DNA of 64,000 nucleotides from Deltaproteobacteria bacterium (lineage in GTDB: Bacteria > Myxococcota_A > Polyangia > Fen-1088): positions 1-64,000 of the forward strand of contig JANRKS010000006.1 in NCBI GenBank assembly GCA_033763315.1. The letters run 5' to 3'. Every line of letters starts with the position of its first letter. Position 1 is the stretch's first letter. The translations under genes were made by a program, and so were the position numbers. Positions 10,308 to 52,574 of the stretch are shown in pieces. A model generated the notes under the pieces. It was not told the origin of the DNA, made no database searches, and was given only the letters and a program-made list of their open reading frames with translations.

Positions 10308-10335
10308 GTCGCCTCGACCCAGCTTCAACGGCTCA
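10308..10335 (-). promoter_or_regulatory. Putative ECF promoter TGAGCC-N18-CGAC
   Basis: TGAGCCgttgaagctgggtcgaggCGAC, 9 nt before ATG 10298. Confidence 0.7.
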
Positions 10336-10372
10336 ACAGAGTTCTGCGTTGGGCGTGGAGCGGAAGCCTCCT

Positions 10373-11272
10373 TCAGGGCGCTGCGCTGATCGCAAAGTCG
10401 TCCACGTAGATCTTTCCGTCCCAGTTCACACCGGCCCCGGTCGATAAGAACATCCCCAGCTCGAACAGTGTAAACCCACTGATCTTCGAGCAGTCGAAGG
10501 TGTCCGGCAATTTAAAGGTTATCTCGCTCCATTGGCCAGGTTGCACCTGAAACAGGGCGCCGCCTACGCCTTGCCACCCGTTGAGGGTGTGTATCACAAG
10601 CTGCAACCCTGAGAGTTGATGGTCCATGGGGATCTTGACCCACACTGACATTGTTCGTCCTGCCTGAAGCCAAGGCGTTACACTTTCGCGCGTCACCACT
10701 GAGAAGAACCAATTGCGCCGCGTGTTCGACGCTACCTTGCCTTCTTCTGTGTTGATCGTTATCTCCATCGAACTTGCGCCAGTGCGCTTTTCGGTCGTGG
10801 AAAGCACGGGTGCTGACGCGGGCACGCGATCGTTGGTGGGACTTGCCGCATCCGCGCGGGGCTCCCACAGTTCATTGGTATTCTCGAAGCCTATGGCCTT
10901 CATTCCTGGCACAGTGGCGCACTGTCCTGGCGTCATGCCGCCTGTGCCGCCGGTCACCATGGTGCCACCGGTGTTCATGTTGCCACCTGTGCCACCAGTC
11001 ATCATGGTGCCGCCCATGTTTACGGTGCCACCCATGCCGCCGGTAGCAGCCGAGCCTCCTGAATTTGATCCGCCCGATCCGCCTGATGCGCTTGCACCCG
11101 AACCGCCGCTACGCGAGCCACCCGAGCCGCCCGATCTACCGCCGGAGCCTGCTGTGCCACCTGAAGCGCCTTCGCCTCCAGCGCCACCATCGCCATCACC
11201 ACCGTTCGAACCGGAACTGCATGCGACGGCCAAAACAATGCCTAGGGCAAAACCAGCGCTTAGTGTCTTCAT
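10373..11272 (-). CDS. Lipoprotein with Gly-rich tether and C-terminal CBM-like beta-sandwich
   Basis: MKTLSAG...LAVAC lipobox; long G/S/T linker; GFE...G..SME...MSVWVKIP...GQWSEI...GKIYVDDF; AAGGGG RBS before ATG 11272. Confidence 0.75.
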   Translation of the reverse strand: MKTLSAGFALGIVLAVACSSGSNGGDGDGGAGGEGASGGTAGSGGRSGGSGGSRSGGSGASASGGSGGSNSGGSAATGGMGGTVNMGGTMMTGGTGGNMNTGGTMVTGGTGGMTPGQCATVPGMKAIGFENTNELWEPRADAASPTNDRVPASAPVLSTTEKRTGASSMEITINTEEGKVASNTRRNWFFSVVTRESVTPWLQAGRTMSVWVKIPMDHQLSGLQLVIHTLNGWQGVGGALFQVQPGQWSEITFKLPDTFDCSKISGFTLFELGMFLSTGAGVNWDGKIYVDDFAISAAP

Positions 11273-11333
11273 CGAATAGACCCCTTTGTGAACCTCGTGT
11301 CGTCCGAGCGAATCCGCGTCGGGCTTGCCTTGA

Positions 11334-11361
11334 GTCGCCCCGACCGCGGCTTTACGGCTCA
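11334..11361 (-). promoter_or_regulatory. Putative ECF promoter TGAGCC-N18-CGAC
   Basis: TGAGCCgtaaagccgcggtcggggCGAC upstream of 11272. Confidence 0.7.
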
Positions 11362-11465
11362 ACAAAGCTGCGGTGGGTGTCTAGACGTGGCTGTGTCGCT
11401 CCATTCGTTGGACATAGGGGCAAGCGAACGCCGCCGATGGCGGGTACGCAAACGACGGGGAACGC

Positions 11466-11501
11466 AAAATGCGCCTGGCTACGTAAGCATAGCCAGGCGC
11501 A
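11466..11501 (-). terminator. Intrinsic terminator after the 11525 gene
   Basis: 12-bp perfect stem TGCGCCTGGCTA/TAGCCAGGCGCA followed by TTTT on the minus strand. Confidence 0.75.
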
Positions 11502-11524
11502 CCCGATCTCGGTTTAGCGAGGGT

Positions 11525-12868
11525 CTATGTCTTGATCACAAGGTCGTCGATGCAGTTGCCTTGCGGACCTCGAATCTCAACCTTGAGCAAATTATCCCAG
11601 CCGCTGAAGTTCATTTGCGTGCCGACGTTCGATGGGTTTGTAACAGTTTGAACCACCGTTGTGGTTGTGCCCTTTTTGAAGCCGCGCACCGTCACGGTGG
11701 AGTTTTCGCCCTTGTAGCCTACCTTCATCGAAACCAGCGAAAAGGGTTCGCCCGAGTTCTTGGTGATAACCATGTGCTCGTTCCAGCCCGCTTGGCACAA
11801 ACGCCGGCCGCCGCTTACGTCTTGAATGTCAAGCGTGCCAGTCGAGTTCATGAAAACCGTGTTCTTAAACTCTAGATTGTTGCTGGTGGTCCATACATCT
11901 GCGCGGCTGGCAGCAACAATGCGGATAGACTCTGCGTTGAAGTCGTAGGTCCTCGTGACCCAGTCTTGTGCAACGGCGCCGTTGTAGTTGCGATTCACGT
12001 AGGTGGTCATCACGTTAGGCCACAGCGCTCTCCAGGGGGTGTAGGCGGTATCTGATTTGCCGCAATCCTTATAGTCGAAATGCTCACCGTCGGGCATCAC
12101 CTTCGGCATGCAGAGCCGGCTCGCAATCCCGGTGTAGAGCGTGCCATCGTCTGGGCGATATCCGCTCCACGCCGTGTAAGGATTTGCGCTGCTGGCGCCC
12201 AATCGCCCAGGTATGTTGGCCTTAAATCCATCTCCCTTCACGTAATACGCCTCGGGCGGATTTGACGCCAATACGTTGCCGAAGAAGACACCTTCCATGA
12301 TGTGTGCATCGCTGCCCCCTTCGTGGGGCATGCTCATGCCCACAGAAGGCATCCGATCGGGGTCGGCGTTGATGAAAATGGGCACGTGGTTGCCGGTGCT
12401 GTTCATGTGGGCCATGACGCATGCACTGATCTTTTGCTGGCAACTGGCATCGCAGCTTCCCTCTTTCCAGCCGGTGCCGACACCCATGCGGCCGTAGTAG
12501 CGGTGCCACGCGCCGGTGTTGTCTTGTTTGTCGAGGTAATCTCCGCTGGCCAACGCACACTTGGCCAAGTATTCGGCTGTGGCGCGCCCACCGTTCGAGG
12601 TCATTAGGCCGTTCGAGGTCATCAACCCGTTCGAGGTCATCAACCCGTTGATGGTCGAAAGGCCGTTAGAAGTCATCAGGCCGTTGGAAGCCACAAGGCC
12701 GTTGATGGCAGACAACCCGTTGATGGCCGAAAGGCCATTCTCAGAGGTCAGCCCTTGAGACACGGGATCATCCTGCAGCAACGAAGCCCCGTCCTGCCCG
12801 GGCGCACCGCAACCTACAGCGCCGCCCACCAACAAAACACCTAGCGAATTCCAGAACACCTTTGTCAT
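11525..12868 (-). CDS. Myxobacterial-type secreted lipoprotein with NGLxxx hexapeptide repeats and Cys-containing domain
   Basis: AVGC lipobox; about 9 NGL(S/M/V)xx units; YLAKCAL...G.MGVGTGW...CDASCQQKISACVMAHMN. Confidence 0.8.
   Translation of the reverse strand: MTKVFWNSLGVLLVGGAVGCGAPGQDGASLLQDDPVSQGLTSENGLSAINGLSAINGLVASNGLMTSNGLSTINGLMTSNGLMTSNGLMTSNGGRATAEYLAKCALASGDYLDKQDNTGAWHRYYGRMGVGTGWKEGSCDASCQQKISACVMAHMNSTGNHVPIFINADPDRMPSVGMSMPHEGGSDAHIMEGVFFGNVLASNPPEAYYVKGDGFKANIPGRLGASSANPYTAWSGYRPDDGTLYTGIASRLCMPKVMPDGEHFDYKDCGKSDTAYTPWRALWPNVMTTYVNRNYNGAVAQDWVTRTYDFNAESIRIVAASRADVWTTSNNLEFKNTVFMNSTGTLDIQDVSGGRRLCQAGWNEHMVITKNSGEPFSLVSMKVGYKGENSTVTVRGFKKGTTTTVVQTVTNPSNVGTQMNFSGWDNLLKVEIRGPQGNCIDDLVIKT
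12591..12754 (-). repeat. 18-bp coding tandem repeat (NGLMTS/NGLSAI)
   Basis: Repeated (c/g)ccgttcgaggtcatcaa-type units. Confidence 0.85.
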
Positions 12869-12871
12869 CTC

Positions 12872-13180: not shown

Positions 13181-13208
13181 TGAGCCGTTTGATCCATGCC
13201 ACGACGAC
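13181..13208 (+). promoter_or_regulatory. Putative ECF promoter TGAGCC-N18-CGAC
   Basis: TGAGCCgtttgatccatgccacgaCGAC upstream of 13293. Confidence 0.7.
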
Positions 13209-13292
13209 ACCACGATAGGACTGAAATGTTTTTGTAGCGAGGGAAGCGCGCATGCGTTCGACCTTCAGAGGCCAGCGCGGAGGATCCTGATC

Positions 13293-14960
13293 ATGCATTT
13301 GTTTGTCGTGAGAAAAGTGATGCCCTCAACGGCGTTTGCGATCGCGGTGGTTTTTGCGGCTTGCTCAGGAGCTGTTGTTGAGAACAAGCGGGAGGATGAT
13401 GAGGTTAAAGGCGAAGCGGGCAGGCCAGGTCAGCCCGGAAAGACGCCCGAAGATAGTTTAGAAGAATCCCGCAACTGGGATCCTGAGCCCGCATGCGACG
13501 CTGCTGTTCAACGAAAGGTTCTTCGGCTCTCTGATCGCCAGATCCGCCATGCCATGCGCGATCTTCTTGGTGTTGCCATGCCTGCACTAGAGACGGGACC
13601 AGGCAACCAGAATACCTTTATCGCGCCCACCGCGGCCACCGTAACGGCCGCCGTGTTCGATAAGCTGCAGCGGACATCAGAAACAGTTGCGCGTGAAGCG
13701 ACCGTCGCTGGTTCGGACCGAACCGTATGCAAGAAAACCAACGAAGAATGTGCTGCCTCGTTCATTGATGATTTCGCAGGCCGCGCCTTTCGACGTCCCT
13801 TGATGGCGAGCGAACGCAGTGAACTGCTGGCTGTGTACAAAACGGGAGTGCAGCAGGATCAGCGCCACGCTGACGGTTTATCGTTGGTGATCGAGGCGGT
13901 TCTGCAGTCGCCATCTTTTCTTTACCAGATTGAACAGGTAAAGGACGGTGGGCTCACCGATCATGAGCTGGCCGCACGTCTAGGATGGTTTTTGCTGGAC
14001 TCTGTTCCGGACAACGATCTGTGGCAAGCCGCCCAGCGTGGCGCACTTTCGGATGCTGGCACGCTGCAAGCGCAAACGTCTCGGTTGCTGGAACTTCCAC
14101 AGGTCAAAGCGCATCTGGTTGGCATGTTCACGCGCATGCTGGGACTTGAGGCTTTGGCGGATCTAACCCCAGAAGATAGAGACGGCCTTACCGCCAAACT
14201 GCTTCGTGCCATGCAGGATGAAGCCACCACAATGATTCAAAGTGAGTTGTGGAACCAAGGAAGCCTCGAAGGCCTCCTTACCACGCAAAGCATTGATGCC
14301 CGCGACGGCCTGGGTGAGCTTTACGGTGTGGCCGAAGGTGCTCCTGCCACACTTCCCGCCGACCAACGTGCCGGCATTTTGACAAGAGCGGGCATGATGA
14401 CACTGCACGCAGAAGAGCATCAAACATCGGTGGTGTTCCGCGGCCTTGCTGTGGCACGCAACCTTCTGTGTATCGATCCCCCAGCGCCTTCAGCCGATGA
14501 GGTTGGCCAAGGACAGATCCTTGCGATGGAGATCCCAACCGAGCGTGGCCGCGCAGAGGCGCGAACGTCGATGCCAACTTGCCGGGGCTGTCACTTGCAG
14601 TTTGATCCTGTGGGTGTTGCGTTTGAGCACTACGATTCACTTGGTCGGTACCGCGACACGCTTGAGGTCGAAGGAAAGAAGTTGGCCGTGGATGCAAGCT
14701 GGGATGTTGATGTGGCCGATATTACGGGACGCACCAACGGTGCTGTGGAACTTTCACAACGCTTGGCAAAGAGCCAAGCCGTTCGACACTGTGTGACCGC
14801 CAACGTGGCCTCGTTTGCTTTGGGGCGAAGACTTGCAGACGATGAAATTTGCGCCGTCCGAAAGGTTGCCGATGCCTTCGCAGCGCAAGGTGGTGACATG
14901 CGTTCATTGGTCTTGGCGATTGCCACGTGGCCGGGCCTTCATGCACGAAAGGGGAAGTGA
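13293..14960 (+). CDS. DUF1592/DUF1588-type cytochrome c-like lipoprotein, copy 2
   Basis: FAAC lipobox; RAFRRPL, LQSPSFLY, LAARL.WFL..SVPD, RAGILT, CRGCH..FDPVG.AFEHYD. Confidence 0.9.
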   Translation: MHLFVVRKVMPSTAFAIAVVFAACSGAVVENKREDDEVKGEAGRPGQPGKTPEDSLEESRNWDPEPACDAAVQRKVLRLSDRQIRHAMRDLLGVAMPALETGPGNQNTFIAPTAATVTAAVFDKLQRTSETVAREATVAGSDRTVCKKTNEECAASFIDDFAGRAFRRPLMASERSELLAVYKTGVQQDQRHADGLSLVIEAVLQSPSFLYQIEQVKDGGLTDHELAARLGWFLLDSVPDNDLWQAAQRGALSDAGTLQAQTSRLLELPQVKAHLVGMFTRMLGLEALADLTPEDRDGLTAKLLRAMQDEATTMIQSELWNQGSLEGLLTTQSIDARDGLGELYGVAEGAPATLPADQRAGILTRAGMMTLHAEEHQTSVVFRGLAVARNLLCIDPPAPSADEVGQGQILAMEIPTERGRAEARTSMPTCRGCHLQFDPVGVAFEHYDSLGRYRDTLEVEGKKLAVDASWDVDVADITGRTNGAVELSQRLAKSQAVRHCVTANVASFALGRRLADDEICAVRKVADAFAAQGGDMRSLVLAIATWPGLHARKGK

Positions 14961-14961
14961 C

Positions 14962-16344
14962 GTGAACAAACGCTCTGCGACTAAATGGAACGACCGCCGC
15001 ACGTTCCTAAAGATGGGTGGTGGCGCCTCGGCGTTGGCTTACTGGCTGTTTCGTGGCGTTCAACGCGCGGAGGGGGCGCCGGCTCCTAAGCGCCTGGTGA
15101 TCGTTTCACGCCCCAACGGCAGCATCGCAAAAGACTGGTTGCCCAACAACCAACGAGGCTCAATTTTGGAGCCCTTTGCCGATGTTTGGCAGTATGTGGT
15201 GGCGTTCAAGAACATGCCTATCGCGGTGAACGAGTCGTTCAAGGGTGGCGATCCGCACAGCATGGGATCCATCGCCCTTATGACAGGGCAACCTCGCAGC
15301 CCCGAACGCATACCCAACAACGACAACCATTGGAATACGGCGGAATCTTTCGATCAAAAGCTGGCGCGCGAATCGCCAATCCTTAGTGGGGCACGCTTTC
15401 GCTCTTTGCAATTGGGCGCTTACACCAAAGGACCCTTGGGAGACGAGCCCAGCCGAGCCCTTTCGTTCTCGGGACCTGCGAAGCCGCTTTACCCCGAGCC
15501 CGATACGAAGCAACTCTACGCGCGTATTTTTGGCTCCCTCATGATCCCTGTTAAAGAGGGCGAAGCTCCCAGTCCGGCAGGTGTTGTAACGGCCATGGAA
15601 AAATTGCGACGACGCCGCGAGAGCGTGCTGAGCTTCGTGATGAAGGATCTGAATCGGGTGAGGGCACAGTTTCCTTCGGAAGCCCGCGCCGATCTCGAGG
15701 CGCACGAAACCTCGATCCGCGAAATGGAAAAAGCGCTTGATGCGATGGAAGAGAGTGGGGGCTCGGCTCCTCCAATTCCTGTGTCAAGTGACTGCAGCGC
15801 CCCTGCTGCGCCTAACGGCCTACCTGTAAACGAAGGGCTGCAGGACGCACACGCGCGGGTAGGTGCGGCTCAGTTTGAGATTCTGCGCGCTGTTCTCATG
15901 TGCGACCTTAGCCGCGTCGTCACGTTTATGTGGGCAGGCGGTGCGAGCGAGGTGCGCTTTGAAGGCAGTGGCCACCACGCTTTGTCGCACGGCTCGAACA
16001 CAGCCATGTTGTCCAAGATTGATCGCTACTATTCACAGCACACAGCGCCCTTTATTCAGTCGCTGGTGCGTTCAGTGGATCCAGCAACCAAGAAGCCCCT
16101 CATCGACAGCACGCTGGTGTGGTACGTGAGCGAGATCGCCACCGGCGGCCACAGCCTCACTGATATGCCGTTCCTGCTGTTTGGCGGTGATGGCGTGGGT
16201 TTGAAGAACCGTGGGCGCGTTCTGGACGTGGGCGCAAAGCACTCAAGCAACGATGTGTGGACTTCGATCGCCCCCGTCTTCGATATGACCCTCACCAGCT
16301 TTGGCAACCCCGCGTTTGGCCCCATCGCGGGCTTGATCGGGTAG
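14962..16344 (+). CDS. DUF1552 domain protein, copy 2
   Basis: DRRTFLK Tat signal; PNG, SLQLG, SVLSFV, CDLSRV, HHALSH, SEIATGGH; GTG 14962 immediately after upstream stop. Confidence 0.9.
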   Translation: MNKRSATKWNDRRTFLKMGGGASALAYWLFRGVQRAEGAPAPKRLVIVSRPNGSIAKDWLPNNQRGSILEPFADVWQYVVAFKNMPIAVNESFKGGDPHSMGSIALMTGQPRSPERIPNNDNHWNTAESFDQKLARESPILSGARFRSLQLGAYTKGPLGDEPSRALSFSGPAKPLYPEPDTKQLYARIFGSLMIPVKEGEAPSPAGVVTAMEKLRRRRESVLSFVMKDLNRVRAQFPSEARADLEAHETSIREMEKALDAMEESGGSAPPIPVSSDCSAPAAPNGLPVNEGLQDAHARVGAAQFEILRAVLMCDLSRVVTFMWAGGASEVRFEGSGHHALSHGSNTAMLSKIDRYYSQHTAPFIQSLVRSVDPATKKPLIDSTLVWYVSEIATGGHSLTDMPFLLFGGDGVGLKNRGRVLDVGAKHSSNDVWTSIAPVFDMTLTSFGNPAFGPIAGLIG

Positions 16345-16380: not shown

Positions 16381-17661
16381 CTATTCCTTGTTGATGATCG
16401 CCCACCAAGCGGCAGCGTAACGTTTGCCGTACTCTCTCTGCGATTTGTTGTCGTAGTGCACGTTATCGATGAGCGAGAGGCCTTCGGACGTAGCCACGCC
16501 AAAGTTCTTGTCCGCCGCAGCCATCATCGCCAAAGCCATGTTCACCCTGCCGTCAGAGCTGGTGGTACCCACTTCACCTGCCACCACGGGCAAAGTAGCG
16601 TTTGCGGCGCGGGTGCGGATGGCCTGGACGATGGCACCCAGCTTAGCGGCGTACACATTGGGGGCTGTGCCGCTATTCGCCTCGCCCTGATGCCAAATAA
16701 AGCCGCGCAGAACGCCTTTTTTCAACGCTTCATCTAGGTAGGGCAACATAAACGTCCAGTTTTGTCCCGACTGCGGATCCCATTCTTCAACGGATGAACC
16801 GCTTACAGCTATGTTTGCCACGTAGATCGTCACATCGGGATCTGTGACTTGCGTAAGCAAGTTAAGTGCGAACGCGCGGCTTGGGCCCATGGTGCGCTCG
16901 CCGACTTTGCACGCGGCTCCCGTTTGGCTGCTGTATCGGCTAACGTTGAACGGCTCATGTCCCGCAACCCAATTCTTGTTGCGCGCGATCTTGAACACGC
17001 GGTTTGCGGCGGTGATGTCTTCGGCCTGGCAGTCAGCCATGCCTGCCATGTTGGATTGTCCCAACATCAAGAAGACCCAGTTCTTGGCTTTCGGATCGCT
17101 TGAGGTGCCACCACTGCCGCCCGTCACAGCGCCGCCCATACCACCCGTGGTCACGCCACCGGTGCCAGCGATACCACCGGTGCCAGCGATACCACCGGCG
17201 CCAGCGATACCGCCGGTGCCAGCGATACCGCCGGTGCCAACGATACCACCGGTGCCAGCGATACCACCGGTGCCAGTAGAGCCGCCCGTGCCAGTGATAC
17301 CACCGGTGCCAGTAGAGCCACCGGTGCCAGTAGAGCCGCCCGTGCCAGCAGCGCCGCCCGTGCCTGCCATGCCTCCGGTGGCTGCGATGCCTCCCGTGTT
17401 GCTGCCGTTGCCACCACTGGAGCTGACACCTCCTGTGTTGCTAGCGCTGCCGTCGTTGCCGGCCATGACGCTTTCCGCCTGGCCGCCACCACCACCGGCG
17501 TTGTCGCCGCCGTCTCCGCCTTCGCTACCGCTGGTCTCACCGCCCTCGCCGCCACAACCGTCGTCATCGGGGTTGTCACACCGCTCCTCTTCACTGCCGG
17601 ATTGGCAGGCCAACAACAGAAGGGGCAGGCACAGGGAAGCAAAGAACTGCGTGGGTTTCAC
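16381..17661 (-). CDS. Lipoprotein carbohydrate esterase (SASA / CE6 acetyl esterase, SGNH fold) with Gly-rich tether
   Basis: LLAC lipobox; FLMLGQSNMAG, WHQGEAN, DNVHYD; GTG 17661 chosen (track 17688). Confidence 0.88.
   Translation of the reverse strand: MKPTQFFASLCLPLLLLACQSGSEEERCDNPDDDGCGGEGGETSGSEGGDGGDNAGGGGGQAESVMAGNDGSASNTGGVSSSGGNGSNTGGIAATGGMAGTGGAAGTGGSTGTGGSTGTGGITGTGGSTGTGGIAGTGGIVGTGGIAGTGGIAGAGGIAGTGGIAGTGGVTTGGMGGAVTGGSGGTSSDPKAKNWVFLMLGQSNMAGMADCQAEDITAANRVFKIARNKNWVAGHEPFNVSRYSSQTGAACKVGERTMGPSRAFALNLLTQVTDPDVTIYVANIAVSGSSVEEWDPQSGQNWTFMLPYLDEALKKGVLRGFIWHQGEANSGTAPNVYAAKLGAIVQAIRTRAANATLPVVAGEVGTTSSDGRVNMALAMMAAADKNFGVATSEGLSLIDNVHYDNKSQREYGKRYAAAWWAIINKE
17157..17363 (-). 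repeat. 18-bp coding tandem repeat (GGIAGT/GGSTGT linker)
   Basis: Repeated ccggtgccagcgatacca units. Confidence 0.85.
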
Positions 17662-17669: not shown

Positions 17670-17697
17670 GCCGCTGCGACGGGCGCAAATCAGCTCA
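17670..17697 (-). promoter_or_regulatory. Variant ECF promoter TGAGCT-N18-CGGC
   Basis: 8 nt before GTG 17661. Confidence 0.5.
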
Positions 17698-17828
17698 AAT
17701 TATTTCGGAAAGGAGGAAAGGCGCCATCCGACGCCGTTCTTTTCGTCGATCCTAGAAAATGATTGAGCCGTCAAAAGAGCGCAACGATGACGTCTATAGC
17801 TATCTTTTTGAGCCCGCTCTTCGCGGTA

Positions 17829-18854
17829 CTACTTCACGCGCTTTAGTTTGGTGATGCGGCCAAAAGCGTTCCAGTCAGCAACGTACATATTGCCGCGCGA
17901 ATCCCACGCGGCACCGTGGGGCGCGATGAACTCACCGTCTTTCCAAAGCGACGGAGCCACATCATACTTGCCGCGCAACTGCGGGTTGGTGTTGTCACCT
18001 AGCTGCGTCACCACATTATAGTTCTCATCGAAAACTGTGATGCGCCCCTCCAGATCCACCACCAGCAGATCTTTGCCACGAACCACCACCTTTGAAGGCA
18101 AACGCAGCTCCTTCTCCACGCTATCGATGAATGTCCCGTCAAGTTTGAACCGCTGCAAACGATGGTTGCGGCGATCAGCCACCACCACAACAGGCTCGGC
18201 ACCCCGTGGGTCAATGCCAACACCGTGTGGCTCATCGAACTTGCCCGCGCCACCTTGATTCCACGATGCAATGTGATCGCCCTTGGCATTGAATCGATGC
18301 AGCCAATCGTTTCCGTAACCGTCCACCACGTAGACGTCACCATTGGCCGCCACGTCGAGTGCGGTGGGTTTGTATTCGTCTGCGCTTTTGTACATGCCGT
18401 TTTTGTTGGGAAACGGAATCGTCAGCAGCACCTTGCCATCAAGGCCAATCTTGATCACTTCGTGACGGGGGACATGCGCCAGCCAGATCACCTCGGTGCC
18501 ATCAGGCTCTTTGAAAAGCCGCATTCCGTGCAGGCCACCGCCAAGCTCTTGCCCGAACACCCGCGTGATGTTCCCTTGGCCATCCGTTTGAAAGATGGCG
18601 TTCCTTGTGTCGACACTGAAGTACACGCGATCCCGCGCGTCGATCACAACGTCGCCGTGCATCTGCCCTGGGTTCATGCCGGGTGGAAGCTTGAGCCAAG
18701 AAGAAACCCATTCGTAAACATGCGCGCCTTGCCCAAGCTTGATTGCCTTCTTGGCGTGTGCGGCCGGCAACGAAAAGCCATAGGCCCCCACTGTGGACAC
18801 CAACGCAGCTAGAGCAAGCACGCCTACTCGGATCGCACGAACTCGTTTCGTCAT
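17829..18854 (-). CDS. Secreted NHL-repeat beta-propeller protein (peptidylglycine lyase-like)
   Basis: Signal peptide; PTALDVAANGDVYVVDGYG, FDEPHGVGID...VADRRNHRLQ, FIAPHGAAWDSRGNMYVADW. Confidence 0.85.
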   Translation of the reverse strand: MTKRVRAIRVGVLALAALVSTVGAYGFSLPAAHAKKAIKLGQGAHVYEWVSSWLKLPPGMNPGQMHGDVVIDARDRVYFSVDTRNAIFQTDGQGNITRVFGQELGGGLHGMRLFKEPDGTEVIWLAHVPRHEVIKIGLDGKVLLTIPFPNKNGMYKSADEYKPTALDVAANGDVYVVDGYGNDWLHRFNAKGDHIASWNQGGAGKFDEPHGVGIDPRGAEPVVVVADRRNHRLQRFKLDGTFIDSVEKELRLPSKVVVRGKDLLVVDLEGRITVFDENYNVVTQLGDNTNPQLRGKYDVAPSLWKDGEFIAPHGAAWDSRGNMYVADWNAFGRITKLKRVK

Positions 18855-19047: not shown

Positions 19048-19075
19048 TGAGCCGTTTCGGCCTGTCTGCGACGGC
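19048..19075 (+). promoter_or_regulatory. Putative ECF promoter TGAGCC-N18-CGGC
   Basis: TGAGCCgtttcggcctgtctgcgaCGGC, 8 nt before ATG 19084. Confidence 0.7.
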
Positions 19076-19083
19076 TCGCCGAT

Positions 19084-24867: not shown

Positions 24868-24884
24868 TTTTGAGCCCTTGATCC

Positions 24885-26303: not shown

Positions 26304-26345
26304 GGTGCGTGTTTCCTCGTAGGTTTGAAGATCTGTACGCGGGGC

Positions 26346-28025: not shown

Positions 28026-28071
28026 GTGTTGACTCCGATCACGGGGAATGTTTGCGGTGGTGGCTTGTCTG

Positions 28072-29301
28072 TCACCGTGTGGGCGTAACGGCAGCGAAGC
28101 TGGTGCCAAGGCGTAGTTCATCCAAGGAACCGGGACGCGTTACGGTGTCGGCGGTCCAGCTAACCGCGTTCACCAATGGCGGCGTGACCGTAGTCCGAGT
28201 AATGTCGGCCGTGGCTGGTGCCGCGCTTCCCAGCGTTGCTGGGTTTACGTACAAGTTAACCGTATTGTTCTCGCCATACGTTAGCGACACAACCAACAAT
28301 GCAGCGGATCCGATCACTATGGGCTTGGTTGATGGATATACGGCGCCGTCAACTTCCAGGCTCCAGCGCCGCTGACCGTCAATGACTGAGTTGACGCCGT
28401 AGAAGCCGACTCCCACACGTGGTACCTGGTTTGAAACCCAAACGATGTGATTCTTGTGAAGGGTCACCGTCATGGTGGCGTTGGTATCCACATCCATGCG
28501 CAGCAACACGCTGAACCAAACGGTCTTGCCGGCAGCTGCCAAGTCGTTGCCGTTGCGCAAGTTGGCGAAAGCTTCGCCGCCCACATCGAAGCCACGCCCA
28601 GCGCTCAGGTACTTGACGCCGCCAACCGCGTGCGAAGGCGAAACCTTGAGGTTGCCAAACGACAAGGGATTGTCGGAGACGATGTTGAACCCCGGTATAT
28701 CGATGTTGTCCGACTGCACGGACCACGCTGTGCGGAAACCGTAGCCAAGCGCTTGGTTGTGCAGCGGGCCTACCGTTCCGTCGAAAGTATCTTCGGCGAG
28801 CAAGGAAGGGTTCGGCCTCCCGGGCATACCGCCCGTGCCAGACGTGCCGCCTGTGCCGGGCGTGCCTCCAGTGCCAGGCATGCCGCCAGTGCCAGGAGTG
28901 CCGCCGGTGCCAGGCGTGCCACCCGTGCCAGGAGTGCCACCAGTGCCAGGAGTGCCGCCGGTGCCAGGCGTGCCACCAGTGCCAGGCATGCCTCCAGTGC
29001 CAGGCGTGCCACCAGTGCCACCCGTGCCACCAGTGCCGCCGGTGCCAGATGTGCCACCAGTGCCAGATGTGCCGCCTGTGCCGGGCGTGCCTCCACTGCC
29101 AGGAGTGCCGCCGGTGCCACCCTTGCCACCTGTCCCTCCTTTACCGCCCGTACCACCGCGGCCGCCTTTGCCGCCCGCTGAGTCCGCACCGCCGACACCA
29201 TCGTTGTTCACAGAAGTCGATGGGCCGCCACAGGCGCTCGCGACCAAGAAAACTGCGGCTATCCAAGGCAAACGATTTGGGAGGTTTCCAATAAGGTGCA
29301 T
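28072..29301 (-). CDS. Lipoprotein with GGTPGT-repeat tether and lectin-like C-terminal domain
   Basis: ASAC lipobox; LLAEDTFD...TVWFSVLLR...VNLYVNP...LDELRLGTSFAAVTP; GGAG RBS. Confidence 0.78.
   Translation of the reverse strand: MHLIGNLPNRLPWIAAVFLVASACGGPSTSVNNDGVGGADSAGGKGGRGGTGGKGGTGGKGGTGGTPGSGGTPGTGGTSGTGGTSGTGGTGGTGGTGGTPGTGGMPGTGGTPGTGGTPGTGGTPGTGGTPGTGGTPGTGGMPGTGGTPGTGGTSGTGGMPGRPNPSLLAEDTFDGTVGPLHNQALGYGFRTAWSVQSDNIDIPGFNIVSDNPLSFGNLKVSPSHAVGGVKYLSAGRGFDVGGEAFANLRNGNDLAAAGKTVWFSVLLRMDVDTNATMTVTLHKNHIVWVSNQVPRVGVGFYGVNSVIDGQRRWSLEVDGAVYPSTKPIVIGSAALLVVSLTYGENNTVNLYVNPATLGSAAPATADITRTTVTPPLVNAVSWTADTVTRPGSLDELRLGTSFAAVTPTR
28829..29120 (-). repeat. 18-bp/9-bp coding tandem repeat (GGTPGT)
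   Basis: Repeated gtgccaggagtgccgccg-type units. Confidence 0.88.
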
Positions 29302-29369
29302 TTGTGTTTTCTCCGAAGTAGGCGGCTGAGCGATTGTTACGGTTGGGTTGGCTGCGCTGTTGGCAAACG

Positions 29370-30761
29370 TCATCGAGCAAAGTCTGCCCCGCGTGCCGCC
29401 ACAGGCACACGGAACAAAGCTCCAAACGAAACGCTCGCGCCCTTGAGGGTGGTGAAGCCGAGATCCGTTCCAAGTGACGCGTAAAGGATGCTTCCGGTTG
29501 TGCCACCAAACGCCACAGCCAACAGCGTGATTTTGCCCTTGGCCTTTTCGACGGCGTCTTTGGACGCTGGGTCGTTGACAATCGCAATGCGCCCAAACTC
29601 TGCGCCGTTAGAGGCGAAGACACGAACCTCGCTGCCGCTTGTGACGTAAAGATTCCCAAACTCATCACAAGCCAAACGCCGCGGCTTCACAATGTCTGCC
29701 ACCAAAAGCTTCGGCGCCGCAAGTTGTCCTGACGATTGAATCTCTGCCGACCACAAGCTGCCTTTGCCCGTGGCAAATCCAGCGACTGTGAAATACAAAG
29801 TTTTGCCATCAGGCGAGGCCGCAAGGCCCAGCGGATCTTCCATGCCTGTCACTCCCGCAAGAACCTCCGTAAACGCTTGGGCTGCGGTCGCGTTAGGCTC
29901 TGATGTGAAGATGCGCGAGATGCTGGGATTCGTTCCTGCTTTGTGTGTCCAGTAAACCCTGCCACTGGCAAGCTCAACTGAGTCGAGCATGCGGCTGTGC
30001 AAACTAGACACCGACCATTTGGTTACATTCGAAAGATCCTTGAGCTCAAAGGGGCCGGCTGAGAGGCCTGGGCTCGGAATGCGCAGAACAAATTTGTTCG
30101 TTTTTTGTTGATGGCTGTAACACCAAAAAGCATTGGCCGCTTTTCCCCATTTGCACCAAGCCGTTTCTTCGATCTCGCTTGCGGTCGGAAAACGGAAATA
30201 CTCGGTGATGATGGATTTGTCGTTCGATTCTGTAAGTTGCCAAACTCGGAACGGGTGGATGTAAGGAAATGCTGAATCTGATCCCGCCACCTTTGTTGGA
30301 TACGCACCCTGAATGGCACTGACGTAAAGGTGGTTGGGTGGCTGCCATCCTAGATGCTCCACATGCGAGGTTGACCAACCCGGAAGCACACGCTCGGCGT
30401 TTGGGATGTTCTTGATCGGATTCGACGCGTTCGGTGCAAGGGTGGGTGGCATTCCCAAGCCAGGCCCCTCGATCACTTGCCCGGGACCGCTGCCAGCAGC
30501 ACCCGTTGTTGCACCAGCTGTACCAGCAGCGCCCGACGCACCAGCCGTCGAGCCACCGGTGCCGCTGAATCCGCCAGCGTTATTCGGGGCTCGCTCCCCG
30601 CCGTTGCCACCGGGTTGAGCCGAACCGCTTTGCCCCGCTTCGTTGTCCGTTCCTGGATCTTCCGGCTCTTCTTTATCGTCCGCATCGGAAGATGCGCCTG
30701 AGCATGCAGCCACAAGCGCGGACAGGATAAGCCAAGAAAAGCGCGCACGATGACTGATCAT
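29370..30761 (-). CDS. SMP-30/gluconolactonase-like beta-propeller lipoprotein
   Basis: VAAC lipobox; PLGLAASPDGKTLY, LACDEFGNLYVT...VRVFASNG, VAFGG...LY. Confidence 0.8.
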   Translation of the reverse strand: MISHRARFSWLILSALVAACSGASSDADDKEEPEDPGTDNEAGQSGSAQPGGNGGERAPNNAGGFSGTGGSTAGASGAAGTAGATTGAAGSGPGQVIEGPGLGMPPTLAPNASNPIKNIPNAERVLPGWSTSHVEHLGWQPPNHLYVSAIQGAYPTKVAGSDSAFPYIHPFRVWQLTESNDKSIITEYFRFPTASEIEETAWCKWGKAANAFWCYSHQQKTNKFVLRIPSPGLSAGPFELKDLSNVTKWSVSSLHSRMLDSVELASGRVYWTHKAGTNPSISRIFTSEPNATAAQAFTEVLAGVTGMEDPLGLAASPDGKTLYFTVAGFATGKGSLWSAEIQSSGQLAAPKLLVADIVKPRRLACDEFGNLYVTSGSEVRVFASNGAEFGRIAIVNDPASKDAVEKAKGKITLLAVAFGGTTGSILYASLGTDLGFTTLKGASVSFGALFRVPVAARGADFAR

Positions 30762-30769
30762 GCCCAGTG

Positions 30770-30797
30770 GTCGCCACCACAGAGCAACAACGGCTCA
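30770..30797 (-). promoter_or_regulatory. Putative ECF promoter TGAGCC-N18-CGAC
   Basis: TGAGCCgttgttgctctgtggtggCGAC, 8 nt before ATG 30761. Confidence 0.72.
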
Positions 30798-30799
30798 CC

Positions 30800-32581
30800 T
30801 CATTCAAACGGCAATGCAACTTTGCGCATGGGCGCTACAAAGACGGGATCACTTGTGGGCACAAACGAAGGCCCACCTTCCGTGGCAGAATTGACGGCAG
30901 CGGTGAAACGCGACATCAGGGCGGGTAGATCCTTTAGCTCTTCGGGCTTTTGAAAAAGCGCGAGCGAGTTCTGCATGATCTCGGCGCAGCGAAGCCACCG
31001 GCTGCTTTCGCGCAGGCGCCCCGATGTTTCGATGTATGCGGTGCGCAGCAAGATCTCCATGCGCAGGGCGTTGGTTGCCATTGTGCGCAACCGCTGACCG
31101 CGGAGCGAATCATCCATGGCAATGCCACGGGCGGCCATGATCGACCACCATGTAAAGCTGCCCGCGCGGCAGAAGTCGGGATGATCGACGTCGAGCGGCC
31201 TGGCAATCGACGATAGATCTCCCATCGGAAAGAAGCGGCTGTCTGCCCCGTAATGCCGATGTACAAATCTCCAGATGCTCACCAGCAATCTGTGCGTGGC
31301 CATGGTTTCCATTTGGCCCTTAGACCACAGATCCTGTTCCGCCAACCCGCTGACGTGCGTGTTGAAAAGGCCAGGCGGATCCATCATCGTGTGCAACCAA
31401 AACAGCGAACGCCGGTACGCTGCCAAATCCCACCACCAGCCAAGGTGAGCTTGGCCGGGGTGAGGCGATCCAGGATCGGCATCAATGCGTCCATCACCGA
31501 ACGCACAGTCATTGCCCTCGCACGTGCCCGCACGATAGTCCGGGGGAAGTTGTGTCCATGTATTTGTAGAAGCGAAGTCGCTGTCCACGGCTGCCCACGC
31601 GAAGACCAGATTGCGGTTAAACAGTTTCTCGCGGTCAGCTTTGACCACATCGGCCAGGCCGGCTGAGGGATCGGGAAAATCGAAGCTGCCCCGCTGCAGC
31701 ATGAACGCGATCACTTGCAAGGCGCGATACTGGCTGCGCGCATGCTTGGCCAACACTTCGGGTATCGGTGTTAACGCGCGCGCCGTGGCGGTGCGAAGGG
31801 TTTCTTCAACCGCGCGCCAAAAGGTAAGTGGCTTTGGGTCGCTGATGTATGCGTTTTGCGCTTCGAATGCGCGTTTGGCTGCGGCCGGCTCTGGAATGGT
31901 TGCAAAACTCGGCAGCCACTCGAAAATGCGTACATGCTCGGGCCCATGGATGCCGCTTGAACTGAGCAAGGGAAACTTGATCGCGGTGGGAAGCTGGCGC
32001 AGATCGAGGTTAAGCAACTGGTCACGCGCGCGCTCGGCTTGTTCCACCGTGGTGATGGCGCCCGGCTTTGCAATCGCAAGGCCCTGCGTTTCAAGATGGC
32101 CGAACAGCACAGCTTCCTTTTCGTGGGTGGTGGTCGCGGCTTCAATCTCTGCGTTGCGTGGCAGCAAACGAAACTGCAACGGATCAAGCGGGGCGTCGAT
32201 GGTGAATCGCGCACGCTGGTAAGACACCAGCTTTGCGATGGCTTCTGCATCGGCAGGGCTGGCTCCTTCGGCAGTGGCCTTTGCGGCAATTACATCGGGC
32301 GCAAATCCCACGCGCGCAAGGCAGCTGGCATCGAAACTGTGGCAGTGAACGCAAGCGCCGCGCCGGTTTGGCCGCCGCCATGCCAATAAGCCTTGCCGAA
32401 ACTCTTGATTTGCAAAGGGATCGGCAACATCTTTTGCGATCGGAACCACCAGATCTTCGTCATCCTGCACCACGGGGCCGATAGGATGATTGGCCTTGAT
32501 CAAGTTTACGTCGCAACCACACAGCCCGATAAACGCAAGCATCGTTCCGGTAAGCCGAATGCTGCACAGAGTACGTGGCAT
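30800..32581 (-). CDS. Uncharacterised lipoprotein with a single CxxCH (putative cytochrome c)
   Basis: LCGC lipobox; GACVHCHS; ATG overlaps upstream stop (TGATG). Confidence 0.7.
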   Translation of the reverse strand: MPRTLCSIRLTGTMLAFIGLCGCDVNLIKANHPIGPVVQDDEDLVVPIAKDVADPFANQEFRQGLLAWRRPNRRGACVHCHSFDASCLARVGFAPDVIAAKATAEGASPADAEAIAKLVSYQRARFTIDAPLDPLQFRLLPRNAEIEAATTTHEKEAVLFGHLETQGLAIAKPGAITTVEQAERARDQLLNLDLRQLPTAIKFPLLSSSGIHGPEHVRIFEWLPSFATIPEPAAAKRAFEAQNAYISDPKPLTFWRAVEETLRTATARALTPIPEVLAKHARSQYRALQVIAFMLQRGSFDFPDPSAGLADVVKADREKLFNRNLVFAWAAVDSDFASTNTWTQLPPDYRAGTCEGNDCAFGDGRIDADPGSPHPGQAHLGWWWDLAAYRRSLFWLHTMMDPPGLFNTHVSGLAEQDLWSKGQMETMATHRLLVSIWRFVHRHYGADSRFFPMGDLSSIARPLDVDHPDFCRAGSFTWWSIMAARGIAMDDSLRGQRLRTMATNALRMEILLRTAYIETSGRLRESSRWLRCAEIMQNSLALFQKPEELKDLPALMSRFTAAVNSATEGGPSFVPTSDPVFVAPMRKVALPFE

Positions 32582-33615
32582 CAAAACACCTGATACTGCA
32601 GGCCCAACGCTGCGTAGCCTATCGGCAAGCCCCAGGTGCCAGCTTGTCTTTCGGCGAAGGTCAACTGAACCCAAGGCACGCCAACCCCAGCGGCCAAATC
32701 AAACGTAAGTTGCAGATTTTGTGTGACGGCCACGCCTGCGCTCGCAAGCCCCATTGCCGCGCCGGCCGGATGCAGGGCAACGTCTGCCGTATAGCCAGGC
32801 GTTGTGTCCGAATCGAAATGGGTAACGCCGCCCCACAATTGCAGACCAGCATCCAAAGTGATCCGCCCTTGCTGCAGGCGCCGCAGAAGGCCTAAGCCTG
32901 CAAGATAACTCTTCACACCGCTTTGCCCTTCAACCCCAGTTAGAGGAGACGCCGCAACGTTAAAGAGGCCCGCCATCGACAGCACCCATTTCGGGCGCAG
33001 AAGCACGCGAAACGCCAGGTGCCCGAGCCACTCGGGCGAAACGCCCCGAACAGATGACAGCACAGCGGGCGCCAACAACACGTGGCCCTGGCGTGAAAAC
33101 GTGGGTGCGCTTGGTTTAGGCGTTGGCGCCGCCGCAGCCACGTCGCTTACAGGCTTTGGCATCGCGGGCGCCGCTTCGATTTTCGTGCTGCGCGCGGGAA
33201 GCGCAAGCTCAAGCAAGCTGGCGCGCAAAAGTTCAACGGTTTGCAGCGCCACCGTGCCGTGGTCGTGTGCGTCGGCATCTAGTTGGCGCAACACGGTTTT
33301 GCCTGTGACCCGGTCTGCCACCACCGCTTGCCAGCCAGTGTCCGTGTAAGCCACACGAACCGCGGCGATCGCCGCCCGTTCTTTCGCCAGCGCATCAAGA
33401 CGCCATGGAACTTCAAGGCTGGGTTCATCAACCACCGCGATGGGCTGGTAACCCATGATTTGAAATTCAACACTTAACCGCGCTTGCAATCCGGCATCCG
33501 AAGAGACCACAAGGATCTGCCGCGCCTCTCGGTCGTCTGTCCATCCAGGACTGGCGATTGCAACCAACGTCAGGAAACAGATAGGTGCAATCAGGGCGCG
33601 AGCCACACGCATCAC
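32581..33615 (-). CDS. Secreted, outer-membrane-like protein of ECF triad 1
   Basis: Signal peptide; RLSVEF...ALQTVELLRASLLEL N-domain; Pro-rich linker; amphipathic strands ending LQYQVF. Confidence 0.72.
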   Translation of the reverse strand: MMRVARALIAPICFLTLVAIASPGWTDDREARQILVVSSDAGLQARLSVEFQIMGYQPIAVVDEPSLEVPWRLDALAKERAAIAAVRVAYTDTGWQAVVADRVTGKTVLRQLDADAHDHGTVALQTVELLRASLLELALPARSTKIEAAPAMPKPVSDVAAAAPTPKPSAPTFSRQGHVLLAPAVLSSVRGVSPEWLGHLAFRVLLRPKWVLSMAGLFNVAASPLTGVEGQSGVKSYLAGLGLLRRLQQGRITLDAGLQLWGGVTHFDSDTTPGYTADVALHPAGAAMGLASAGVAVTQNLQLTFDLAAGVGVPWVQLTFAERQAGTWGLPIGYAALGLQYQVF

Positions 33616-34835
33616 GGCCTGCGGTCCATGCCGTCCATCGATGATGCCGCGATCAACTTTTGGGCTAGCTGCGTATACGCACCGGAGGGGTGCGCTTTCA
33701 CAAACGCGCGCGCTGCGGCCACCGCCTGCGCATCCAGCTTCGCGGCCTTCAAGGATTCAATGTGACGCCAACCGGCTTCTTCGGACATGGGGCCCCGAGG
33801 GGCGCGCTGATAGCTGCGCGCAAACCATTGCGACGCGCGCGTGGGGCTGCGGCTCTGCTCGTCAGCCATACGGCCCAATGTGAACGCGGCGATGCTGGCG
33901 GCTCGGTCATCCGATGATTCCCACACGTGCTCATAAAGGCGTGCAGCTCGTTTTTGCTGGCCACCCAAGCGAAGGGCATCGCCTACGGCAATCGCGTCCG
34001 CGGCACTCAAGCGATTCAGATTGCGCTCAAGGCCCAACCGCGAAATGGCTCTGACGGCGCCTGCGAAATCGCCGGCGCGCACCAGGCTTTGCCACGGGGC
34101 CGTTGCAACAACGTCACGTGGGCGTGGTGAAGACGATGGTGGGCTCTCCATTGCAGGCGCAGCCGCCGCTTGCGGCGGGCAGCGAATGTCTTGGGCGTCG
34201 CCAGCGTTCAGAATGATGTCTTTGGCGAGGCAATCGCCATGCACGCGCACCTGACCGTGGTGCATTTGCACGAAAAGCGTTTCCGCCGGGGCATCCCAGG
34301 CCATGTCGAAACTTGTGCCTGTGACCTCCACAACAAAAACGCCCTGTTCGCCCGCAACGAAATCCCAGTGTTTCACACGTGGCGTAACATCTGCGCGTAG
34401 GCGGCCGCTGCGCAAAACTATCTTCGCCAATGCCTTTTGGTTGGCCGCGATCTTCGCCGTGGCGCCGCCTTGCAAGGCCACATTGGTACCCTCTTCAAAC
34501 TGCATTGGGAAGGCGCGATCGAGCGCGGCCGTCACCCAGGCTCCTGTGGCTGGCAATGGTGTGATGTGTGCCGCGAATGATGTGGGTTGTGGCACGGCAA
34601 CCTCGCGCGCGGTGGGGCGCAAGGCGATAAAGGCAACAACGCTCGCGGCGAAGCCCAGCGAAGACGCAAGCAACCACGGCCGCAGCGCGTGCAACTTGGA
34701 GGTGTGGCGTTGGCTTGCCGCGCGTAGAAACCCATCGCGCGCCCGCTCGGGATTGCGCATGGCTTCGCGCCGCTCGTCCCAGACCTGGGCGGCCGGGGCA
34801 ATGAACTGCGCTATTTCGCGATCGCGGTCTTCCAT
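33612..34835 (-). CDS. FecR-domain anti-sigma factor with C-terminal TPR
   Basis: TM helix; FEEGTNVAL...LRSGRLRADV...VEVTGTSF...GQVRV FecR motifs; TPR ending FVKAHPSG. Confidence 0.85.
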   Translation of the reverse strand: MEDRDREIAQFIAPAAQVWDERREAMRNPERARDGFLRAASQRHTSKLHALRPWLLASSLGFAASVVAFIALRPTAREVAVPQPTSFAAHITPLPATGAWVTAALDRAFPMQFEEGTNVALQGGATAKIAANQKALAKIVLRSGRLRADVTPRVKHWDFVAGEQGVFVVEVTGTSFDMAWDAPAETLFVQMHHGQVRVHGDCLAKDIILNAGDAQDIRCPPQAAAAPAMESPPSSSPRPRDVVATAPWQSLVRAGDFAGAVRAISRLGLERNLNRLSAADAIAVGDALRLGGQQKRAARLYEHVWESSDDRAASIAAFTLGRMADEQSRSPTRASQWFARSYQRAPRGPMSEEAGWRHIESLKAAKLDAQAVAAARAFVKAHPSGAYTQLAQKLIAASSMDGMDRRP

Positions 34836-35446
34836 TTTCCACTTCTGCTCACGCAGTCCCAAAGGTCCGGATCTTGGCGTGCGGCGGTCAAGAAGCGCCC
34901 CTCGGCGCTGCCCAAACGTCGCTTAATGGTGGCCAGGGAAACACCGCACACGCTGGCCACCTCTTCAAGTTGCATGCCCTCAAGGTGCCGCAACGAGAAC
35001 GGTATGCGAAGGTCTGAAGACATCTTATCGAGGATCAGGCGCAGCGATTCGGCCAACATGGCTTCTTGGGAATCGGGCGCGTCGACGTGTGGGATCTCGC
35101 TGGTGCGAAGGAATAGTGCGCGCAGCCGTCGGCGGCGTCCCATTTTCCGTAGGTAGGAACGCGCTTTAAACACCGCCACCGACGCCAGCCAATGTTTGAG
35201 AGATTCGCCCTTTCTTACGTCACGAAAGTTTGCCAGCGCCGCCACAAAAACTTCTTGAAGTAGATCGGGGATATCGCCATCGGGCCCCAAAATGCGACAC
35301 AACACACGGTCAACGTAACCGGCATACGTGTCATACAGGGCGCGTGGCGCATTGGGATCGCCGGCCCAAAGCGCGGCAAGTATGCGTTGCTCCTGGGTTT
35401 GAACTTCGGGCCCCGGCGCCCACTGGCTGATGCTTTCGCTCGTCAT
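34811..35446 (-). CDS. ECF sigma-70 factor
   Basis: Region 2 DLLQEVFV...WLASVAV; region 4 LRHLEGMQLEEVASVCGVSLATIKRRL; start uncertain (35446 or 35488). Confidence 0.92.
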   Translation of the reverse strand: MTSESISQWAPGPEVQTQEQRILAALWAGDPNAPRALYDTYAGYVDRVLCRILGPDGDIPDLLQEVFVAALANFRDVRKGESLKHWLASVAVFKARSYLRKMGRRRRLRALFLRTSEIPHVDAPDSQEAMLAESLRLILDKMSSDLRIPFSLRHLEGMQLEEVASVCGVSLATIKRRLGSAEGRFLTAARQDPDLWDCVSRSGKWKTAIAK

Positions 35447-35598
35447 GAATGCGATCGGACTCGAAGCGATGAAGGTATAGCTTAACAAGTGCCGGGGACT
35501 CGGCTAGGGAAAGCTGGCCATCTGTCGGCGGCACACATAGGGGTACCTAAGCCAGATTGATGGATCGCTGGGCACACGCCTTCAGTCATCAGAAAGAG

Positions 35599-35626
35599 GT
35601 CGCCGCGAACCGGATCGAACGGCTCA
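35599..35626 (-). promoter_or_regulatory. Putative ECF promoter TGAGCC-N18-CGAC (autoregulatory position)
   Basis: TGAGCCgttcgatccggttcgcggCGAC upstream of the ECF gene. Confidence 0.72.
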
Positions 35627-52573: not shown

Positions 52574-52574
52574 G

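Follow-up and report, generated by a model that had tools for sequence, protein, structure and literature searches.

The DNA considered here, called the window below, is a stretch of 64,000 nucleotides (positions 1 to 64,000 of contig JANRKS010000006.1, assembly GCA_033763315.1) from a deltaproteobacterium placed in the class Polyangia of Myxococcota_A. Its G+C content is about 59%, and among its genes are six DUF1592/DUF1552 pairs, one PSCyt/DUF1501 pair, two sigma factors of the extracytoplasmic function (ECF) type, and various carbohydrate-related and repeat proteins; the Pfam scan covered 43 of its open reading frames (ORFs). The subject of this work is a bipartite motif, TGAGCCGT-N14-GRCGRC, which occurs in front of one of the two sigma genes and of several neighboring transcription units, and our analysis supports the view that it has the appearance of an ECF promoter which is autoregulated and also serves a local regulon. 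The motif copies and the genes behind them, the sigma operon excepted, are as follows.

7180-10298, minus strand: DUF1592 copy 1 (8532-10298) and DUF1552 (7180-8535), from Pfam matches and start-codon reasoning
10308-10335, minus strand: putative promoter motif, exact match, ATG 10298 following after 9 nt
10373-11272, minus strand: Gly/Ser-rich lipoprotein with a lipobox signal peptide, no Pfam or NCBIfam match
11334-11361, minus strand: putative promoter motif, exact match, ahead of a 61-nt leader in which AAAGGGG resembles a Shine-Dalgarno sequence
13181-13208, plus strand: putative promoter motif, exact match, followed by an 84-nt leader
13293-16344, plus strand: DUF1592 copy 2 (13293-14960) and DUF1552 (14815-16344), from Pfam
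16381-17661, minus strand: SASA-family carbohydrate acetylesterase lipoprotein (Pfam PF03629, E 6e-38; signal peptide)
17670-17697, minus strand: probable weaker promoter TGAGCT-N18-CGGC, 9.8 bits, GTG 17661 following after 8 nt
19048-19075, plus strand: putative promoter motif with the second-box form GACGGC, exact match, ATG 19084 following after 8 nt
19084-20166, plus strand: lipoprotein, probable alpha/beta hydrolase, judged from its homologues
23938-30761, minus strand: five-gene run, from Pfam, PDB sequence matches to beta-propellers and lipobox signal peptides, made up of the next five entries
29370-30761, minus strand: beta-propeller lipoprotein, from PDB sequence matches
28072-29373, minus strand: Gly/Thr-rich lipoprotein with a lipobox signal peptide
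26346-28121, minus strand: DUF1592 copy 3, from Pfam
24885-26303, minus strand: DUF1552, from Pfam
23938-25026, minus strand: GH115_C-like protein, from Pfam
30770-30797, minus strand: putative promoter motif, exact match, ATG 30761 following after 8 nt

The first-pass annotation, made from the sequence alone, had listed six copies of identical spacing, intergenic and facing genes, and the coordinates and strands it gave for them proved exact in every case. The reduced pattern TGAGCC-N18-CGRC has seven matches in the window (0.67 expected on shuffling), the seventh (59708(+), TGAGCCGA) lying within a coding region; the full pattern is found exactly six times and was absent from each of 100 shuffles. 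When a weight matrix was tested by leaving out one site at a time, each omitted site ranked 5 or 6 of 127,946 positions and scored above all non-site positions. The orientation and position test that had been proposed as a check was run within the window: intergenic DNA makes up 7.8% of it, and all six full-pattern sites lie there, each aimed at a gene on the same strand. The gene map behind this count consists of long ORFs and their Pfam matches, and the figure of six out of six requires that the TTG starts 10328 and 11365, proposed by the ORF finder and running through two of the sites, be rejected; signal-peptide logic speaks against them. Elsewhere TGAGCCGT occurs six more times in the window; five of these occurrences are coding and lack the second box, just as had been stated for the coding matches, and the sixth is discussed below among the points that count against our interpretation.

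As for imperfect copies, 11 matches are obtained with up to two mismatches against 3.3 expected, so that the five imperfect ones are at about the chance level. Three weaker variants had been singled out earlier, of which the one at 17697-17670(-) is plausible, being intergenic and 8 nt away from the GTG of a lipoprotein signal peptide, and is probably a promoter; those at 42012-42040(+) and 38433-38459(+) found no support. In the right half of the window, inspection by eye revealed no motif copy in the intergenic DNA that precedes the remaining DUF1592 pairs and hydrolases, nor did any position there reach a weight-matrix score of 9 bits except one with 10.3 bits at 54462.

Since three of the sites precede paralogous DUF1592 genes, the copies might be remnants of duplicated DNA, that is, promoters carried along with the paralogues or a small repeat, with no regulation in common. 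When the six sites and the weak one at 17697 were aligned together with 60 nt on either side, conservation was confined to the two boxes and a T-rich stretch immediately ahead of the first; outside the invariant boxes neither spacers nor flanks can be aligned, and the motif copies are therefore not duplicated DNA. Three sites stand before the unrelated sigma, hydrolase and beta-propeller genes, and the same first box recurs, as shown below, in genomes whose proteins share only some 40-49% identity. In favor of duplication one may cite a 12-mer, GGATTCGCTCGG, located at about 10278-10289 and 11304-11315 on the minus strand, 18-19 nt past the motif, and shared only by the adjacent sites 10335 and 11361; it falls within the coding start at one site and within the 5' leader at the other, and could be an extra shared element or a local duplication. 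On balance we regard an origin of the motif copies by duplication as highly improbable, more so than any other alternative considered here.

The site at 35599-35626 has the highest weight-matrix score in the window and stands in front of a four-gene operon.

35599-35626, minus strand: putative promoter motif at the autoregulatory position, TGAGCCGT-N14-GGCGAC, exact match, top matrix score
34811-35446, minus strand: ECF sigma factor (ECF1), probable reader of the motif, with Pfam Sigma70_r2 and r4_2
33612-34862, minus strand: membrane anti-sigma factor with one transmembrane helix, FecR-like periplasmic part and tetratricopeptide repeat (TPR)-like C-terminus
32581-33615, minus strand: third operon gene, exported protein, from the AlphaFold2 model and Foldseek
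30800-32581, minus strand: fourth operon gene, lipoprotein with a CVHCH motif (CxxCH, heme c), from its translation

NCBIfam places ECF1 in the sigma70-ECF superfamily only (TIGR02937, 61 bits against a cut-off of 42.9), and the protein, of about 200 residues, has regions 2 and 4 only, as is characteristic of group 4 sigma-70 (ECF) factors. Its nearest relatives in a large protein collection are at most 48-49% identical. Region 4.2 of ECF sigma factors reads the -35 box, and in ECF1 the stretch S170-R177 (SLATIKRR) of this region is invariant or at least 90% conserved among 32 sequences, which parallels the invariant -35 box found in the sigma family. The anti-sigma protein matches FecR (E 0.029) and TPR (TPR_6, E 0.22) weakly. 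For the third gene, an AlphaFold2 model (pLDDT 76.6, from an alignment of 9 sequences) shows an alpha/beta domain at the N-terminus and a small beta-barrel at the C-terminus, and Foldseek matched the barrel to those of OmpA, OmpW, OmpX and Ail with E values from 4e-7; the product thus models as a periplasmic alpha/beta domain joined to a small OmpA/OmpW-like outer-membrane barrel. The fourth gene, whose start overlaps the stop of the third by 1 nt, gave no family match in domain searches; a protein-atlas score of 0.84 to c-type cytochrome lipoproteins of Myxococcota may serve as a lead only. For the second ECF sigma of the window (37667-38404) a role in this system found no support; it was rejected as a member of the family, being 26% identical to ECF1 and having no match in 80 related loci.

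These 80 loci were fetched from a collection of species-representative genomes with an alignment of 32 members of the sigma family. By record title, 73 of them come from myxococcotal or delta-proteobacterial genomes or metagenome-assembled genomes (MAGs), including Sorangium, Polyangium and Polyangiaceae, and seven from other or unspecific taxa. The set excludes the source genome, the best match in it being 48% identical. Bipartite words were counted without bias in the 330 nt surrounding the start of each sigma gene, and TGAGCC stood out. Of the 78 loci whose upstream DNA was long enough, 66 have it in sense orientation no more than about 300 nt ahead of the sigma gene and 23 have it in antisense, its base rate being 803 of 7,712 windows of 330 nt (10%). 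The word is followed by ACT in 53 of the 66 sites, at 19 nt in 43 and at 20 nt in 10, and the family consensus reads TGAGCCGt-N-gGACACT, where G follows TGAGCC in 60 of 66 sites and the second box has the form g-G(42/53)-A(37/53)-C(39/53)-ACT. We therefore take the first box to be a family-wide -35 element at the autoregulatory position.

The strict pattern TGAGCCG-N14-16-GnnAC[TC] has 86 matches in the 1.28 Mb of loci, and half of them, 43, lie upstream of the sigma genes. Among the others, 11 are divergent (-123 to -288 nt from the sigma match), 14 are located elsewhere, and 18 (in 17 loci) lie on the same strand 2.7-3.7 kb downstream, directly past the block of sigma, anti-sigma and third gene. 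The window has the same layout, with the fourth gene placed ahead of the 30797 site. In tblastn searches the window anti-sigma matched 71 of the 80 loci, in 68 of them directly after the sigma gene, and FecR and TPR domains were recognized in 16 and 15, respectively, of 17 of these relatives, picked from the 71 matches by ORF length. Homologues of the third gene are found 1.8 to 2.9 kb past the sigma gene in 10 loci at E<=1e-5 (L009, L012, L015, L020, L028, L035, L039, L041, L066 and L073) and in 14 at E<=1e-3. One locus (L065, 7895-11530) carries two family sigma genes in tandem, the second with a TGAGCCG...GGACACT site and an anti-sigma of its own.

The genes behind the extra sites of the related loci (35 of 41 ORFs scanned, six near-identical orthologue copies being omitted) encode diverse exported proteins, among them CAP, SPRY, LamG, 3-keto-disaccharide hydrolase and multiheme cytochrome proteins and many unknowns, as well as a second ECF and, in L007, a DUF1592 protein. 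DUF1592/DUF1552 genes are present in 12 related loci, 10 per tblastn query, and in five (L004, L007, L016, L019 and L048) a TGAGCC site adjoining the sigma gene faces a DUF1592/DUF1552 operon, which lends independent support to the earlier suggestion that the DUF pairs are ECF targets. At 24 of the 41 extra sites the -10 box is followed after 5-24 nt by a start codon that opens a reading frame of 150 aa or more, which is the case for 595 of 5,000 random positions. The idea of an autoregulated ECF regulon is thus supported by the conservation of TGAGCC at homologous sigma genes, the extra copies before neighbors, a -10 box particular to each locus and the fixed distance to the start codon, and we consider it likely that the window sites are ECF promoters of the family to which the 34811-35446 sigma belongs.

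Four window sites, including the weak one, are followed by a single start codon able to yield a lipoprotein signal peptide, 8-9 nt past the last base of the motif, and such a short fixed distance leaves no room for a 5' leader. This geometry is what the promoter of leaderless mRNAs would be expected to show. At the remaining three sites the leaders measure 61, 84 and about 110-152 nt, the last value applying to the sigma gene, upstream of which we also noticed a 35-codon ORF (about 35482-35589(-)) whose ATG stands 9 nt past the sigma promoter motif, as at the putatively leaderless genes, and whose stop overlaps TTG 35488, in frame with the sigma gene.

A different possibility is that the motif is not a promoter but the operator of a conventional DNA-binding regulator, because dimeric regulators also use bipartite sites of fixed spacing, and an AraC-type (6325-7179) and a LysR-type (21600-22535) regulator are both encoded in the region. 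The two boxes are, however, dissimilar and strictly oriented with the downstream gene, and the motif accompanies a sigma/anti-sigma pair in the 66 loci of other genomes mentioned above. Moreover, the 8-9 nt to the start codon at four sites leave no space for a separate promoter, and of the seven matches to a sigma-70-like consensus in the 7-26 kb region none falls within the motif-bearing intergenic regions; counts in the sigma-70 promoter and terminator scans of 7-26 kb equal the shuffle expectation. An operator is accordingly very unlikely in our opinion, only marginally less so than duplication. It may be added that the site at 19048-19078 is partly palindromic (AGCCGT ... ACGGCT), its reverse strand reading CGAGCC-N18-CGGC and being aimed at an NHL-repeat gene about 195 nt off; this site could be bidirectional, or the palindrome could be coincidental.

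If the sites are ECF promoters, it has to be decided which sigma factor reads them. The earlier inference named the 34811-35446 ECF or a paralogue; the local sigma now stands as the best candidate, and a paralogue encoded outside the window is retained as its rival. The sigma's own site and three of its targets share the -10 form GGCGAC, and the other two targets, with GACGAC and GACGGC, differ from it by one base; it is this sharing of the -10 form between the sigma's own promoter and the targets that makes the local sigma the best candidate. All six sites lie within 25 kb of its gene. When the sigma promoter of a related locus is compared with an extra promoter of the same locus at the five variable -10 positions (12 pairs after dereplication of 25), 3.58 of 5 agree on average, against 2.46 +/- 0.25 when permuted, and 0 of 10,000 permutations reached the observed value.

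These agreements speak against a paralogue of the same family being the true reader, with the local sigma merely one of its targets or sharing its specificity. Such a paralogue is nevertheless conceivable, as several members of the family occur per genome (two loci each in Sorangium cellulosum So0157-2, Sorangium sp. So ce726 and four MAGs), the TGAGCC -35 box is common to all of them, and the source genome lies outside the collection searched. We rate this alternative as unlikely, although well ahead of an operator or of duplication, and our confidence that the local sigma is the reader is somewhat lower than that in the sites being promoters of its family.

Several observations weigh against the interpretation of the sites as promoters of the local sigma and its regulon, and should be set against the above. 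The sixth of the other TGAGCCGT occurrences, at 17764-17791(+), is intergenic and carries a nearly complete second box (TGAGCCGT-N14-GATGAC, one base off the full pattern), to which the earlier statement that such matches lack this box does not apply; it points at no sense-oriented gene but at the 3' end of the NHL-repeat gene 17829-18854(-), which is convergent with it, and the site could be an antisense promoter or non-functional. The -10 box of the window, GCGAC, is present at none of the 80 related loci, though it is placed equivalently: a regular expression for the window type (CG[AGT]C) matched upstream of 0 of 80 sigma genes save for one chance-like match. The register of GCGAC relative to GACACT is also ambiguous, the position of ACT being matched by GAC at +19 in one alignment and by ACy at +20 in the other. 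With relatives at most 49% identical, conservation of the -35 box is a property of the family and no proof for ECF1 itself. The choice of start codons in the test that gave 24 of 41 favors the upstream-most codon, and the -10 agreement within loci may partly reflect local promoter duplication or shared ancestry, or genome composition, neither of which is controlled for by the permutation. Finally, three further DUF1592/DUF1552 pairs of the window (42061-45290, 46881-50077 and 61069-63931) have no motif, and the regulon therefore does not cover all such pairs in the window.

Taken together with what is generally known of ECF systems, the data allow the following mechanism to be proposed. TGAGCCGT would be the -35 and G(G/A)CGAC the -10 element of an ECF-type promoter. 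The sigma 34811-35446(-) would be kept inactive by the adjacent membrane anti-sigma with its FecR-like periplasmic domain and TPR-like tail until an envelope signal brings about its release; the co-encoded small outer-membrane barrel protein might relay the signal, both the signal and this role of the barrel protein being conjecture. The freed sigma would then direct transcription of its own four-gene operon, giving positive feedback, and of five or six transcription units in its vicinity (about 17 genes from 7.2 to 35.6 kb). The proposed targets are three DUF1592/DUF1552 pairs, the alpha/beta-hydrolase lipoprotein, the SASA acetylesterase (with its weak site), and the beta-propeller and Gly-rich lipoproteins. 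In four units the predicted transcription start would coincide with the start codon or lie no more than about 3 nt from it, and leaderless mRNAs would result.

As to the putative targets themselves, each gene directly behind a site, the sigma gene excepted, opens with a lipoprotein signal peptide. The product of 10373-11272 had been called a CBM (carbohydrate-binding module) lipoprotein; the lipobox signal peptide justifies the second part of this name, and the first has no Pfam or NCBIfam match to go with it. What had been labeled an esterase at 19084 is a real gene with homologues up to 67% identical; some of them are labeled dienelactone hydrolase or PHB (polyhydroxybutyrate) depolymerase by JGI, which points to a probable alpha/beta hydrolase, while the protein has no Pfam match and nothing was found for it in a PDB sequence search. 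The five genes of 23938-30761 appear to form one operon, judging from their abutting layout on the same strand. The lipoprotein 28072-29373 consists, past its lipobox, of a linker of about 120 residues built of GTGG(T/M)PGTGG units and a C-terminal globular part, and Gly-rich linkers of a similar kind follow the lipobox in most of the target proteins.

Among the surrounding features, a c-di-GMP-I (cyclic di-GMP) riboswitch (RF01051, 12879-12955(-), 48 bits against a gathering score of 35) is located about 10 nt upstream of the uncharacterized 447-aa gene 11525-12868(-), which lies between motif-controlled units and has no ECF motif. The motif-less DUF1592/DUF1552 pairs are found near the unrelated ECF 37667-38404 and two hybrid histidine kinases (50148-54377), as well as near a pectate-lyase-like (39873-42002) and an RGL11-like (54557-56590) protein.

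Autoregulated ECF sigma/anti-sigma modules are represented by systems of the RpoE/SigW type, and Staron and co-workers are said to have described, in 2009, such modules with group-specific bipartite promoters. The present system resembles them in having a -35/-10 motif of fixed spacing that precedes both the sigma gene and a small regulon, and a membrane anti-sigma encoded at position +1. It differs from them in its -35 box, which is TGAGCCG and not the common AAC-containing form, in its -10 box, which is GACACT in relatives and GCGAC in the window, and in that several targets are apparently leaderless. Signaling across the envelope by FecI/FecR/FecA uses a TonB-dependent outer-membrane transducer with a signaling domain, and polysaccharide utilization loci of Bacteroidetes are under ECF/anti-sigma control. 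With both of these the window shares a FecR-like anti-sigma and an outer-membrane protein in one operon, and exported targets of which several are carbohydrate-related (the SASA esterase, the GH115_C-like protein). Unlike them, it has neither a TonB-dependent transducer (TonB_dep_Rec, Plug) nor a SusC/SusD pair among the 43 ORFs scanned; the outer-membrane partner is here predicted to be a small OmpA/OmpW-like barrel, and the sigma gene has its own promoter motif, which is atypical for FecI.

The approach used here, clustering of sigma homologues followed by mining of their upstream regions, corresponds to a promoter-discovery procedure described by Todor et al. in 2020 (PMC7776599). Within the ECF classification 2.0 published by Casas-Pastor et al. 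in 2021, as far as the sections relevant here go (PMC7826278), group ECF267 is found in Sorangium and Chondromyces and has a FecR-like anti-sigma fused to tetratricopeptide repeats at +1 and one to three protein kinases nearby, and ECF210 is a group of Sorangium, Sandaracinus and Chondromyces; those sections report no conserved promoter motif for either of these two groups, which are the ones most resembled. The relatives of our sigma likewise include Sorangium, and their +1 proteins carry the FecR and TPR domains counted above; in contrast to ECF267, there is no protein kinase domain among the 43 window ORFs. Kinases apart, the family agrees with the published description of ECF267, to which, or possibly to ECF210, it may correspond.

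As an autoregulated ECF regulon, the system is of an ordinary kind. Within the reach of our literature searches, neither its promoter consensus nor its leaderless geometry nor its DUF1592/DUF1552 targets seem to have been published. A search for TGAGCC in connection with ECF returned primer-type matches only; the strings 'GAGC' and 'CACT' do not appear in the earlier part of the supplement to the ECF classification (PMC7826278), its later groups being outside the scope of this statement, nor does 'GAGC' in the main text of PMC7776599. Searches combining Sorangium, ECF, anti-sigma and promoter brought up no paper on the present sigma family, those on DUF1592/DUF1552 no paper on their regulation or function, and those on leaderless transcripts in Myxococcus nothing relevant.

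DUF1592/DUF1552 pairs occur in large numbers in Planctomycetes, Verrucomicrobia and Myxococcota. DUF1592 proteins belong to the PSCyt/PSD-domain class, and according to a statement in a 2017 paper nothing was known on the function of proteins of this class and of the genes paired with them (PMC5615132). The motif described here is very probably a promoter read by the adjacent sigma, which would join lipoprotein operons of obscure function into a set that can be switched, and the regulon would thereby offer a handle on these proteins: if it is real, overexpression of one sigma or deletion of one anti-sigma should induce three DUF1592/DUF1552 pairs together with defined hydrolases. For a sigma family of the Polyangia it also supplies a consensus, TGAGCCGt-N-gGACACT, whose invariant -35 box combined with a locus-specific -10 box suggests a possible insulation, by which cross-talk between paralogues would be avoided in genomes with at least 80 ECF sigmas. 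A wider proposal, which we hold to be possible rather than probable, is that the Polyangia possess a large paralogous family of ECF/FecR-TPR/barrel modules that share one invariant -35 box, TGAGCCG, and have private -10 variants, each module inducing its own adjacent, largely leaderless lipoprotein operons, here DUF1592/DUF1552 pairs and carbohydrate esterases. Were this so, the DUF1592/DUF1552 pairs would be surface machinery induced by an envelope signal.

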